This document shows, piece after piece, positions 53,475-59,615 of a stretch of DNA of 64,000 bases. The notes under the pieces were generated by a model. The model worked only from the letters and a program-made list of their open reading frames with translations. It was not told the DNA's origin and made no database searches. How positions within the stretch are numbered: position 1 is the first letter of the stretch; each line of letters begins with the position of its first letter. Origin of the DNA: an uncultured Chlamydiales bacterium (lineage in GTDB: Bacteria; Chlamydiota; Chlamydiia; Chlamydiales; FEN-1388); the NCBI GenBank assembly GCA_963826935.1, contig CAWGYH010000005.1, positions 704,608 through 768,607 of the forward strand, written 5' to 3'. A program made the translations under genes and the position numbers.

Positions 53475-56105
53475 ATGAAGCCACAAAGCGCTCATTATGC
53501 CAATACTCAAAGGCAATCTTTAAGTGCACATCTTTTTGCTGTTGGACATGTCGCAGAATTGTTAATAAAACGACTAATGCCAGAAATAAAACCTTTAGCT
53601 GATGCCGCATTTATTGCTGGTTGTTTACATGACCTTGGAAAAATTGATTCTCATTTTCAGACTTGGGTAATAAATCCTAAACAAAAGAATTTTATTGCGG
53701 AAGATGGACAACATATTGATGAAAAGTTTAGCTTTGAAAAACATCCAAGGCATAATGAGCTTTCTTTATTGCTGTACAATCTTTTGAATCAGCCAGAAAA
53801 CAAAACCATTAATAGCCAAAATAAACAATCAATAGAGCATTGTATATATTGGCACCATGCCAAACCGTTCCGGAAAGACAAAGACTATGTAACCCTCAGT
53901 GATATATATTCAAACTTTTGTAACAATATTAAGGGGCAAGATTGGGAAAATTTCAGTAAAAGTGCATTTACCTGTATCCAGGAAATCTCGGAGATAGACT
54001 TACGGTACCGAGCATCTGAAGTGTCAATTTTAACCAAATTGATCCCTAAAGATTTAGTGATAGATAACGACAAAGTGAACGACTTAAACAAAACTTTATT
54101 GCCGGCATATAAAGAGTACAATAATCAAATTGAAAATATCGAAGAATATGTACGCCATATTAAAAAAAATGCAATAAATAATATTTTGCGAGCTGCTCTG
54201 ATTACAGCTGATCGCATAATTTCTTCTTTAGATGCTGAAGTATTGTTGAAACATATCGCTCATCGAACATTAGATGAGATAGTTTGTGAGGAATTGAAAA
54301 ATGAATCGATGCTGTCCGAGCATATACAACAATGCTTAAATTATTTTGAGCATAAATACCCTATTAGTGAGCGCAATTTAGAGCAAAAAGCTGCTGCAGA
54401 ACGCCTTCAAGGAGTGAGTAATGTTGGCGTTTTAGCCGGTGCTGCCGGCTGTGGTAAAACTAAAATTGCTTTAGAGTGGGCGAAGTTGAAAAAAGCGAAT
54501 AAAATTATATGGATTTGCCCTCGCGTTCAGGTATGTCAGGGTATCTTTAATGATCTTATTTCAGAAGCTTATTTGCCGAATGCGAAAGTGGAAATAAACA
54601 CTGGTGAATTCAAATTTACAAATAGCTGGGAAAGTCCTACCGATGAAGGTGCATATTTTTCGGGCGATGTGGTTATTACAACGATTGATCAAGTGTTGGG
54701 TAATATTATTACCCACAAAAATGTAACGGGGTTGATCGACTATTTAAATGCACATGTCATTTTTGATGAATATCACGAATACATAAATATGCCAGCATTT
54801 AATTTATTGTTTGCTGAATTGGTGCAGTGTAAAAAAGAATTAGATAGCGGTGCCAATATATTATTGGTCTCTGCAACACCAAATTACTATTTTACTAAAA
54901 ATTTTCTTAAAATAGATGATTTTAATATTATTAAAATGCCATCTTTTAATAAAAGCGAATACAAAATTAATTTTGTCGAATATGATGAAACATTAGAGGA
55001 TGATAGTAATCCATTGTATAAGGCTCAAGCAGGAGTGGTATTTGTCATTAGTAATACGGCAACTACGGCCCAAAAAAGCTTTATTCGAAATCATACTGTA
55101 GAAAATGCAGTATTACTGCATTCAAAATATAAAAAAAGTGACAAAAAGAATTGGTTTAACGAAGTGTTCGAATCATTTAAAAATGATGGCACGCGTAAAT
55201 TTGACGTGTTGCGCAGTGGGCCGATTGTTCAAGCCTCTTTAAATATCAGTTGCGACCACATGATTACTGAATTAACCAATGCCGAAAACTGCTTGCAGCG
55301 ATTGGGGCGATTGGATCGATTTGGGGTAAACAAAAAAACCAATCTCTTAAAAATTACTATTCCTGAAAGTTTACATGACGGTAAGGGCAGTGGGGCTGCA
55401 GCAAGGTATTTATCCCGACTGTACATATTCAATTCGTCGCGAGCATGGTATGATTTTTTGCGATGTAAACTTTCTGATAACTCTTTCAAACTGCCAGAAA
55501 TCTACCAGTTGTATGAAGAGTTTTATAATCTAGATAATACCATTAAAAAGATCGAAAGCGATTTGTTAAGTGCCTTGAAAAAAAGCGTAGTTGTCATTAA
55601 GGATAAAGTTATTGATCCGATTGCGATTCCTTCTAAAAAATCCCAAAAAATTGGAGTTTTAAAAATAAGTAAAAATTCTTTACGAGGAGGCAATCGATTT
55701 GTGCAAATGGCTGTCTGCGAGGTTAACGCAGAAAACAAGCTAAATTTCATTGAACAATACGCATATTCTTTTATCGAAAGTGAAACAGTGGACAATTTGA
55801 CTGCTTCGATTGAAAAAATTCAAGGGTATGGTGATAGTAATAATAATCTATTAGCACATATGGCAAAGAAACATCACAATATGATTGATGGCGCTAAGAA
55901 AGCTTATAAAGACATCGTCTTGCTTACTCAAGCATTGTCGCCAGAGTTTCCAATTTATTTAAGCTATACACCTTCTGATTTAGCTAAAGTAGGTGGAGAG
56001 TCTAGTCGCCATTCCGAGGCGATGTATTATGTGGTTACCGACAAGCAACCTGTTGGAGCGATGTCGGTGAAATATTTATTTAATAATGGAGTATATAATG
56101 AATAA
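53475..56105 (+). CDS. cas3: Cas3 HD-nuclease/helicase, not fused to Cas2
   Basis: The N-terminal HD domain starts within 20 aa of the start ([29 protein letters not shown]). Helicase motif [12 protein letters not shown], motif [10 protein letters not shown], motif III VSATP. 876 aa, with no Cas2-like N-terminal extension. Confidence 0.85.
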
Positions 56106-57081
56106 GGTTACAGGTATTAAGAGTGTTGATTTTAAAATCGTTTCTCGAGGATATGGCGTAGTGAATTGGAACGGGCCCACAACCTTGGTAGGCGATGACG
56201 GTAAAAATGTGGATAACCATACTTTGCCCAAACTGCGCGGTTACAGCAATTTATCCGGTAAAGTAAAGGACGAGAATGGCTACAAATATAAAAAACAAGC
56301 TACTGATATAAATTTCAAAGAAACACCATTATATATTAGTCAAAATTGTATTCGTCATCATTTATTCCGCGATCAAACTTTTGATTTGCATTTTGCTGGG
56401 AAAAAAAATTTAGGGCTTGTGTTGGCTTCAATTACAGGATTGGTTCGTGGTTTTGTGGTGCCCGAGAGCCAATGCAAACGGACAAGTCCATTATTGCTAG
56501 AGGATTTTGTTGATCAGTTGGGTAATGGCAATTTTGAGCAAATGGGACGCTCTGGCTCTAAAGCAAAAGGTACAGATGAAGAAGGTAAAGCAATTGCAAG
56601 TAATTCTTTTTTTTCAAAAACCACTTTCGGTGAAACAGAGTACATCTCTTATGGTTCGATAAGCATTGAGCAACTGCAATTCATTTCTCTAGATAAAAAA
56701 TTCGATCGCGCGGCCATGATTATTGATGACAGTCAGGGTGAAGTGGTTGCTAAAGCTGTGCAAGATTTTATCCAACAACTTGACCCAAAACGTAACCCGA
56801 AAATTACTTTTCATAACAACTATGTTCGTAAAGGCACGATTTTTGAAGAAGGTGAGGTGGGACTTTTATTAGACGATGAAGCTGTCGATATTGTTGTTAA
56901 TGAAACTTTACGAATGATCAAAGAGCTTAATATCCGACAAGCTAAAGGCTATATGTACGTGCACACAATTGAGGAAGACTACAATGATAGTCACAAAATG
57001 ATGCGCATTAAACACTTTCCAAACGAAATAGAGCAAAAATCGGATAAATCTTATGCTGTCTATTTTTATGCAAAATCATAG
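56098..57081 (+). CDS. cas7fv: Cascade backbone subunit, Cas7fv-like (assignment by position and size)
   Basis: First of only two genes between cas3 and cas6f. About 327 aa. Start ATG 56098 (ggag 6 nt upstream) overlaps the cas3 stop. Gene order matches the Cas8-less type I-F variant (cas3-cas7fv-cas5fv-cas6f). No family motif could be verified by eye. Confidence 0.55.
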
Positions 57082-58727: not shown

Positions 58728-59047
58728 TCGTTCTTTTATAACACCTGTTTGTAAATTCTAATTTCTATTGATTTTTACAACGAATTATGGTTAACGAAGA
58801 TAATAAATTTACTTTCGATCGAAAACAAAATATTATAAATTAATTTTATACTATTTACATTGTCAAGAGTGTGTGTATTATAAGTAAAGAGTAAATAGTG
58901 ATCGACTTAAAGACTATCGAAAAATTTTCTCTAATTCATAAGTCCTTGAAAGTAAATAGACTGAAATTCGAGTAAATAAAAAGGGTCATCACGGGCTCTT
59001 AACTCTTATTCTGTTGATATGTAATAAGATACGTCAATTCAATGACA
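58728..59047 (+). promoter_or_regulatory. CRISPR leader (AT-rich)
   Basis: 320-bp AT-rich non-coding stretch between the cas6f stop and the first repeat, in the transcription direction implied by the I-F repeat orientation. Confidence 0.6.
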
Positions 59048-59615
59048 GTTCACTGCCGCATAGGCAGCTTAGAAGAACGAGAGAGGCTTTTGTAGAAATT
59101 GTACAAAGTTCACTGCCGCATAGGCAGCTTAGAAGATGTAGGCTAATGGACCTTTTGTCATCTTAAGGTTCACTGCCGCATAGGCAGCTTAGAAGAATAA
59201 AGGTGCAGGAAATGGCGGAGTAACTTAGTTCACTGCCGCATAGGCAGCTTAGAAGATCAATAATATTTGCATCGCCCTGCTGCCTCAGTTCACTGCCGCA
59301 TAGGCAGCTTAGAAGACATAAATCACCTCCGAATAAACATTTTATTCGTTCACTGCCGCATAGGCAGCTTAGAAGACGAAAGCCTGGGCGAGATCAGGTT
59401 CATTCTTGTTCACTGCCGCATAGGCAGCTTAGAAGCAACTTCCACCTGAAGTTAGGACTTATTTTGAGTTCACTGCCGCATAGGCAGCTTAGAAGATAAC
59501 CAGCCGATACATGTCATTAACATAAATGTTCACTGCCGCATAGGCAGCTTAGAAGCAACTCAACAGTCCTGACAGGCTTGCGAATAAGTTCACTGCCGCA
59601 TAGGCAGCTTAGAAG
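59048..59615 (+). CRISPR. CRISPR array 1: 10 identical 28-bp type I-F repeats, 9 spacers of 32 bp
   Basis: The repeat GTTCACTGCCGCATAGGCAGCTTAGAAG starts at 59048 and recurs every 60 bp to 59588. The stem CTGCC/GGCAG matches the canonical I-F repeat GTTCACTGCCGTATAGGCAGCTAAGAAA. Confidence 0.97.

Follow-up and report, generated by a model that had tools for sequence, protein, structure and literature searches.

Type I-F2 (I-Fv) CRISPR-Cas systems are known structurally from Shewanella putrefaciens CN-32 (5O6U, 5O7H, 9G44). In that organism, the genes follow the order cas3-cas7fv-cas5fv-cas6f-array, neither Cas8 nor Cas11 is present, and repeats of 28 nt alternate with spacers of 32 nt. In addition, cas1 is present there, and Cas2 and Cas3 are encoded as a complete fusion (PMC4937334). 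Here, we describe a locus in a 64,000-nt stretch of DNA, referred to as the window, that resembles the S. putrefaciens system in all the features listed first and in its conserved catalytic residues. In contrast to S. putrefaciens, it has lost cas1, and a pseudogene stub is all that is left of its Cas2 domain. The reading that we favour, with a probability of about 0.72, is that this is an I-F2 locus from which the adaptation genes have been deleted and whose interference module is probably able to cut DNA that matches its spacers. Statements below that a gene or an open reading frame (ORF) is absent, cas1 included, refer to these 64 kb.

Two other described systems are relevant for comparison. 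Among 437 Chlamydiota genomes a single CRISPR-Cas locus has been found, which belongs to type I-E (PMC12669027). It is that of Protochlamydia naegleriophila, the one chlamydial species with a described CRISPR-Cas system; the KNic and Diamant strains carry a type I-E system with cse1, cse2, cas7, cas5, cas6e, cas1, and cas2 (PMC5010888). Like the window locus, it is a horizontally acquired type I system with a small array and spacers that lack database matches (PMC5010888). It differs from the window locus in subtype and in having kept cas1 and cas2, and the two loci are unrelated. The initial annotation had mentioned a type I-F locus in P. naegleriophila and had suggested that the window might be that locus or a relative; since the P. 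naegleriophila system is I-E (PMC5010888, PMC12669027), the window is a different one. Type I-F3 resembles the window locus in being derived from I-F and in lacking an adaptation module. It is defined in part by tniQ and tns genes; no Tn7 genes were present among the window ORFs scanned. Type I-F3 systems have no cas3 and carry a Cas8/Cas5 fusion (PMC9428484). Assignment of the window locus to I-F3 was rejected because it has an intact cas3 and fv-type Cas5 and Cascade genes.

The locus consists of four co-directional ORFs, called at 53475-56105 (876 aa), 56086-57081, 57082-58140, and 58131-58727. With the start codons taken from the gene call of an independent assembly, the products are 876, 327, 349, and 196 aa long, and successive genes are joined by an 8-nt overlap, a 9-nt gap, and a 4-nt overlap. 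The genes are as follows.

53475..56105, + strand: cas3, 876 aa, a stand-alone Cas3f2 made up of HD nuclease, RecA1, RecA2, and C-terminal domains.
56098..57081, + strand: cas7fv (cas7f2), the Cascade backbone subunit, 327 aa.
57091..58140, + strand: cas5fv (cas5f2), 349 aa, the subunit for capping of the 5' handle and sensing of the protospacer-adjacent motif (PAM).
58137..58727, + strand: cas6f (csy4), the CRISPR RNA (crRNA) endoribonuclease, 196 aa.

The product of cas3 matches the PADLOC Cas3fv profile at 1224 bits, only over profile positions 107-945 of 951, and PDB chain 9g44_A at 994 bits. The late start of the profile match agrees with the view of the initial annotation that this Cas3 begins at its HD domain. 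The cas7fv product matches the NCBIfam equivalog NF040577 Cas7fv at 467 bits (cut-off 200) and the PDB chains 5o6u_C and 9g44_F at 517-518 bits. For the cas5fv product the scores are 208.6 bits with Pfam PF20158 Cas5fv_helical (cut-off 25), which places the inserted helical domain in the protein, 472 bits with PADLOC Cas5fv, and 384 bits with PDB 5o6u_F over residues 8-346. The PDB matches of Cas7fv, Cas5fv, and Cas3, with E values of 1e-114 to 5e-298, are all to the S. putrefaciens I-F2 Cascade or Cas3. The cas6f product matches Pfam Cas_Csy4 at 173.9 bits and TIGR02563 at 136.9 bits; with 65 bits for Csy4 of Pseudomonas aeruginosa and 40 bits for Cas6f of S. putrefaciens, it is nearer to the former. 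The space between cas3 and cas6f is taken up by just two genes, which overlap or abut their neighbours and leave no room for Cas8f or Cas11, and no Cas8f profile match was obtained. The profile scores, the PDB matches, and the lack of room or match for Cas8 and Cas11 thus confirm, at the level of sequence, that the locus is a type I-F2 (I-Fv) CRISPR-Cas system. The subtype, the gene order, and the absence of Cas8 had all been proposed in the initial annotation and are borne out.

I-F2 systems are further characterized by a Cas2-Cas3 fusion effector and by a cas1 gene adjoining cas2-3. In the window, the Cas2 domain occurs only as a truncated, frameshifted remnant, and no cas1 adjoins it. A tblastn search of the whole window with I-F2 Cas1 gave a best E of 0.24, and family scans of window ORFs of at least 250 aa yielded no Cas1 or Cas2 match. 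The earlier description of the locus as interference-only, without cas1, therefore holds.

The array side of the locus is made up as follows.

58728..59047, + strand: AT-rich leader, which holds the best promoter-like site of the region (58854-58881).
59048..59615, + strand: CRISPR array 1, ten identical 28-nt repeats GTTCACTGCCGCATAGGCAGCTTAGAAG with a 60-nt period and nine spacers of 32 nt.
59616..59977, + strand: inter-array segment, of which the first 53 nt (59616-59668) are a trailer copy and the rest is GC-richer and without a match.
59978..60187, + strand: CRISPR array 2, four repeats, of which three carry substitutions that lie outside the stem, and three spacers (33, 33, and 32 nt).
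60188..60240, + strand: trailer copy at the right edge of the island described below, where homology to a related contig (L026) ends at 60238.

Together, the two arrays hold 12 spacers, the number given in the initial annotation. Eleven repeats, including all of array 1, match Rfam CRISPR-DR4 at 45.7 bits (gathering score 35); the other three score 42.4, 36.5, and 34.7 bits, the last just under the threshold. When folded, the repeat has a stem of 5 bp and a pentaloop, behind which an 8-nt handle CUUAGAAG is left; the three variant repeats keep the stem. The ten identical repeats and the CRISPR-DR4 matches are in accord with the canonical I-F array of nine 32-nt spacers and conserved repeats in the initial annotation, and the fold leaves exactly the 8-nt crRNA 5' handle that it had predicted. 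The promoter-like site in the leader, TTTACA-16-TATTAT, agrees with the consensus at 10 of 12 positions.

The inter-array segment contains no ORF and has no Rfam match apart from the repeats and no BLAST match; an Rfam scan of the upstream region also returned nothing. An 81-nt duplication, made up of a terminal repeat and the 53-nt trailer, occurs at 59588-59668 and at 60160-60240 with 93% identity. The two copies bracket a 309-nt GC-richer segment and a degenerate mini-array of three spacers, and a shorter motif is likewise repeated at 59916-59936 and 60244-60264. The duplication and the short motif suggest two successive insertions or a rearrangement at the edge of the island.

The spacers were searched for their sources. 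No self-targets and no spacers shared with related loci were seen at up to 7-8 mismatches. A BLAST search with the whole array against phages and plasmids was set aside, as it returned only repeat-driven matches to other I-F arrays. With the spacers alone, phage and plasmid collections yielded no match up to an E of 10; IMG/VR yielded none for the seven spacers searched there, in which every sixth base had been masked, and JGI metagenomes none for spacer 1.

The fate of the adaptation genes can be read from the sequence directly upstream of cas3, where two features are found.

53328..53474 (147 nt), + strand: Cas2-domain pseudogene remnant of cas2-3, codons ~54-103, truncated at its 5' end and ending directly before the cas3 ATG.
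53292..53321, unstranded: hairpin GGGTCAAA, 14-nt loop, TTTGACCC, read off the sequence, 6 nt upstream of the deletion breakpoint.

The remnant was recognized by comparison with a JGI contig, L002, which carries cas1, cas2-3, cas7fv, cas5fv, cas6f, and a 20-spacer array with a repeat identical to that of the window, and whose Cas3 is 74% identical to the window Cas3. The two loci are collinear over window positions 53328-58736 with 76.7% nucleotide identity, and the homology begins at codon 54 of cas2-3; the remnant itself is 79% identical to L002 in nucleotides. The L002 Cas2 domain as a tblastn query gave two matches (E = 2.7e-23), that of residues 55-85 to 53329-53415 in another frame and that of residues 81-130 to 53406-53555 in the frame of cas3. 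The remnant lacks one nucleotide near 53406 and is interrupted by in-frame stops, one of them a TAG two codons ahead of the cas3 ATG; its translation is KNTAAACHRIKSRSRSKLVWIVCSK/QFNLEGIVPVNITQNELITDD*S. The start methionine of cas3 is conserved in relatives (MKPQS). No similarity to cas1 or cas2 exists upstream of 53328. From 52150 to 59075, the window agrees at 100% identity with an independent assembly by Logan of run ERR10755938, and since this identity extends across the scar the frameshift is reproduced, possibly from the same reads.

Given the Cas2 remnant upstream and a closest relative that has cas1 and a full cas2-3, we conclude that a deletion removed cas1 and the first ~53 codons of cas2-3. 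The initial annotation had overlooked the pseudogene and had treated the lack of a Cas2 fusion as a distinct design; the locus is instead an ordinary cas1 and cas2-3 I-F2 locus that a deletion has truncated, leaving a scar. A natively Cas1-less and Cas2-less I-F2 design, constituting a separate evolutionary variant, would account for the recurrence in databases of Cas3 ORFs of ~875 aa that lack the Cas2 domain. Against it stands the frameshifted, stop-bearing pseudogene directly upstream of cas3. Moreover, several of the short database entries (P0048, P0052, and P0103) are contig-edge truncations and were discarded as evidence. The closest Cas3 homologues (62-74% identity) are 969-978 aa long and have the Cas3_I-F_Cas2 domain. 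In a neighbour-joining tree, the window Cas3 is sister to a clade composed entirely of full-length Cas2-3 proteins, and the short forms do not make up one clade; the four cases listed below with a remnant each have a scar of their own. The scar and the tree together refute a native design, to which we assign a very small probability.

The sister clade consists of the metagenomic JGI loci L002, L027, L028, and L029, the nearest relatives of the window locus, with Cas3 70-74%, Cas7fv 72-83%, and Cas5fv 71-77% identical. All four have cas1 and the full Cas2 domain, unlike the window, and none shares a spacer with it. The arrays of this intact clade are larger, with 20 spacers in L002 and 104 in L029 compared with 9 + 3 in the window. 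In L029, 105 repeats with 104 spacers extend over 9829-16107; members of this I-F2 lineage that have cas1 and cas2-3 are thus active in adaptation. The flanks of L002 share no genes with the window. Just downstream of its array, L002 has a sequence at 11440-11500 that resembles the 3' half of a tRNA, as might be expected of a tRNA-associated island.

Loss of the adaptation module is not peculiar to the window. A scan of GTDB representatives contributed 17 I-F2 loci, and most of the I-F2 loci fetched contain cas1 and a full Cas2 domain by tblastn. The module is missing in 3 of ~27 other I-F2 loci, namely those recovered regardless of Cas3 length that have informative upstream sequence, so that roughly a tenth of I-F2 loci may have lost adaptation through a 5' truncation of cas2-3. 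The adaptation-less loci that resemble the window, in having neither cas1 nor the Cas2 domain and a cas3 that starts at the linker, are the following.

L016 (Acinetobacter calcoaceticus JUb89): frameshifted remnant from residue 56, with a housekeeping gene upstream.
L003 and L025: shared synteny and scar, remnant from ~residue 76.
L004: remnant from ~residue 88.
L044: remnant from ~residue 89.
L039: no remnant; array upstream.

An array was found in L016, L003, and L039. The L003/L025 pair and L004 are scattered in the tree, so that their losses are independent. The losses in L016, L039, and L044 are judged to be independent because their scars differ (L039 having none) and their Cas3 proteins are only 42-53% identical to that of the window. 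The cas3 genes of L003 and L025 are 89% identical, with a ratio of nonsynonymous to synonymous substitution (dN/dS) of 0.18, which indicates that selection continued after the loss in this lineage. There, an old loss has been followed by conservation of the genes; in the window, the loss is recent.

Most of the other adaptation-less loci have breakpoints that differ from that of the window. The exception is L016, which breaks at position 9833 at the same cas2-3 codon, Lys54, in a run of A, as does the window at 53328. The two Cas3 proteins are ~45% identical, and each has a closer intact relative. A shared mobile element at this breakpoint was rejected, as the upstream flanks bear no relation to each other, that of L016 being occupied by a housekeeping gene. 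The coincidence could be due to chance (a few per cent) or to a hot spot.

It is possible to argue from these loci that loss of the adaptation module in I-F2 systems is a recurrent, selected outcome rather than random decay. At least six independent lineages lack cas1 and the Cas2 domain but keep a linker-start Cas3; in addition, two lineages are broken at Lys54 and one pair is under purifying selection. We consider a selected loss distinctly unlikely.

Other I-F2 loci have been altered in other ways. In L019 (8722-12614, Acinetobacter sichuanensis), cas1 and cas2-3 each align in two pieces, which suggests frameshifts, and this locus may be decaying by a different route. In L024 (2773-5067, Logan SRR20698640), the cas3-cas7fv and cas7fv-cas5fv junctions hold inserted toxin-antitoxin-like pairs, two in all, each of a 76-aa ORF followed by a PIN-domain gene. 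L039 (66-2210) is a locus of 30% GC, with four repeats upstream of cas3 and six small ORFs without a family in between; it may be located on a phage or another mobile element.

The state of the remaining genes is crucial for whether the window locus still works. Compared with L002, dN/dS is 0.13 for cas3, 0.08 for cas7fv, 0.12 for cas5fv, and 0.20 for cas6f, with dS of ~1.0-1.5 in these intact genes; it is 0.23 for the Cas2 remnant (47 codons). Because the remnant still has the look of a sequence that had remained coding through most of the divergence (79% identity, dN/dS 0.23), the deletion is taken to be recent relative to the split from L002. Among ~249 Cas3 core positions that are at least 97% conserved in a 120-sequence alignment, three depart from the consensus (D105N, F645Y, and R821L); intact relatives in the same alignment have 2-12 such departures. 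The HD motifs CLHDLGK (H52/D53), HPRHNE, and YWHHAK are present, as are the Walker A motif GAAGCGKT and DEYH. In S. putrefaciens, mutation of H156/D157, D532, or H535 abolished interference (PMC4937334, PMC12956352), and the window Cas3 keeps the counterparts of these residues and of the Walker A residues that are likewise essential (PMC12956352). In Cas6f, the residues aligned with His29 and Ser148 of Csy4 are conserved. The interference genes and the arrays look competent, and we infer that they would be expressed, assemble, and be active in interference.

Whether Cas3f2 can function without its Cas2 domain is informed by work on S. putrefaciens. In PDB 9G44, a Cas2-truncated Cas2-3f2 docks, via Cas7 and Cas5, on the R-loop of the I-F2 Cascade (PMC12956352). 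The window Cas3 begins ~8 residues downstream of the start of that construct, query residue 4 being aligned to chain residue 12. Based on this docking and on the similar starting point, recruitment of the window Cas3 to Cascade is expected by analogy. Interference in E. coli has been obtained with cas2-3, cas7fv, cas5fv, and cas6f in the absence of cas1 (PMC7266957). The nuclease activity of the Cas2-less form in vivo is presumed. The engineered Cas2-truncated Cas2-3f2 is a laboratory construct (Perry et al. 2026, PMC12956352), whereas the truncation in the window is natural and arose through a genomic deletion.

The course of events that we favour may be outlined as follows. The locus lies on a low-GC, strain-variable island of a probably chlamydia-like bacterium of the Planctomycetes-Verrucomicrobia-Chlamydiae group. 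Its ancestor had the normal cas1, cas2-3, cas7fv, cas5fv, cas6f, and array. A deletion then took cas1 and the first ~53 codons of cas2-3, after which cas3 would be read from the conserved linker methionine. Cas6f would cleave the array transcripts behind the repeat hairpin, and Cas5fv, six Cas7fv, and Cas6f would assemble on each crRNA. This Cascade complex would locate targets with a GG PAM and recruit the stand-alone Cas3 via Cas7 and Cas5, and Cas3 would degrade the DNA. Without Cas1 and the Cas2 domain, no new spacers could be acquired unless these functions are supplied in trans.

Such a supply in trans would leave the locus adaptive, with Cas1 and Cas2-3 of another I-F locus in the genome adding spacers to its arrays. 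The canonical I-F repeat (Rfam CRISPR-DR4) would allow this, the ~100 nt of the leader nearest the repeats are partly conserved with the leader of L002, and I-F1 and I-F2 systems co-occur in Acinetobacter (PMC9428484). However, there is no cas1 within 53 kb upstream or 3.8 kb downstream, the spacers are few, and CRISPR-Cas is nearly absent from Chlamydiota (PMC12669027), so that we hold adaptation in trans to be highly unlikely.

Several points weigh against the reading of a working interference module. The stretch from the hairpin to the cas3 ATG yielded no promoter-like site, and the Shine-Dalgarno sequence of cas3 is weak. The deletion is too recent for intact ORFs to prove selection or maintenance. 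The Cas2-truncated Cas3f2 has been shown only to bind, and the in vivo assays used the full-length protein (PMC12956352). Neither the PAM nor the targets are confirmed, since no protospacer was found for any spacer tested. The uniform spacers and perfect repeats, which the initial annotation had cited against long decay, are no evidence of long maintenance, as a recent deletion predicts intact genes under either reading.

The same observations could indicate a dead remnant, in which the deletion took the operon promoter along with the translation start, so that cas3 and maybe the whole operon are silent and simply too young to have decayed. The recent deletion and the lack of a promoter-like site directly upstream of cas3 fit this explanation, as do the small arrays in comparison with L002 and L029, the degenerate array 2, and an insertion sequence (IS) fragment close by; that I-F2 loci do decay is illustrated by the split cas1 and cas3 matches of L019. 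It is opposed by the presence of four full-length ORFs with conserved catalytic residues, by the leader, which holds the best promoter-like site of the region, and by the L003/L025 lineage, in which a similarly truncated system is kept under purifying selection. On balance, a dead remnant appears unlikely, and a locus with deleted adaptation genes and a probably functional interference module remains the preferred reading.

The surroundings of the locus are consistent with its acquisition as part of an island. The GC content is 0.34-0.38 over 53-59 kb, compared with 0.43 for the window and 0.45-0.49 for the adjacent flanks, in line with the AT-rich cas block remarked on in the initial annotation. 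L026, a Logan contig from another run, is 97.8% identical in nucleotides to window positions 64000-60238; beyond that point it runs on into an unrelated gene not present in the window. This puts the right edge of the island at ~60238 and shows the island to be strain-variable. The low GC and the absence of the island from the same junction in L026 support the horizontal acquisition that had been proposed. Two features lie towards the left side.

51816..52123, + strand: 5' fragment of an IS481-family element, 308 nt, 97% identical to the 5' end of the full copy at 39120-40313, on the left side of the island.
52548..53135, + strand: abiU2-like HEPN gene, 195 aa, a neighbouring defence gene in the same low-GC island, Pfam HEPN_AbiU2 45.5 bits (cut-off 26.8).

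An ORF at 51899-52189 in the IS481 fragment encodes the transposase helix-turn-helix, with NCBIfam and Pfam IS481 matches. The abiU2-like gene had no PADLOC match. Elsewhere in the window, a 68-nt element is present in five copies (38601-38664, 40402-40469, 47541-47608, 47729-47796, and 51596-51663). It forms a GC-rich hairpin (e.g. GCTGCGATTCTTCGCAGC) and adjoins both the full and the truncated IS481 copies; it resembles repetitive extragenic palindromic or miniature inverted-repeat transposable elements and is possibly a target for IS insertion. An IS110-family transposase gene at 40607-41995 lies beside the full IS481 copy and matches the NCBIfam 'RNA-guided transposase' at 195 bits.

The host of the locus is probably chlamydial, an assignment based on the labels of two metagenome-assembled genomes (MAGs) and on gene content. 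PyrG is 87-90% identical to proteins of MAGs labelled 'Chlamydiales bacterium' and 'Verrucomicrobia bacterium', and a lineage-restricted DUF748 protein leads to the same two labels. The next named matches, at 68-70%, are a mixture of Chlamydiia and Parachlamydiales with Verrucomicrobia. In earlier GTDB releases, Chlamydiia belonged to Verrucomicrobiota, which could explain the second label. The order kdsB-pyrG-ruvX at 33511-36304 presumably matches that of CT182-184 in Chlamydia trachomatis. The chlamydia-like host of the initial annotation is thus plausible from MAG labels and gene content, although the labels are mixed. Genes for eukaryote-like proteins are dense at 12270-17635, 27375-31381, and 42608-49294 and include those for Ser/Thr kinases, WD40 proteins, and ankyrin-repeat proteins, two of each, and for one PP2C-like phosphatase; one of the WD40 proteins is fused to a GNAT domain. 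Such proteins are typical of an amoeba-associated intracellular lifestyle.

The arrangement of the window locus is not unique among I-F2 loci, and it is mainly the probable chlamydial host and the natural Cas2-less Cas3f2 that make it notable. Annotation pipelines would label a 5'-truncated cas2-3 simply as 'Cas3'. As a natural counterpart of the engineered Cas2-less Cas3f2, the locus could be used for testing the most compact type I system in vivo without adaptation. If loss of the adaptation module is indeed selected, the window locus would be a young, hard-wired interference-only module, which could avoid self-priming and autoimmunity in a host-restricted bacterium or hold fixed guides against mobile elements. 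If the host assignment holds, it would be the second CRISPR-Cas subtype in Chlamydiota and would mean that such bacteria still receive defence islands.

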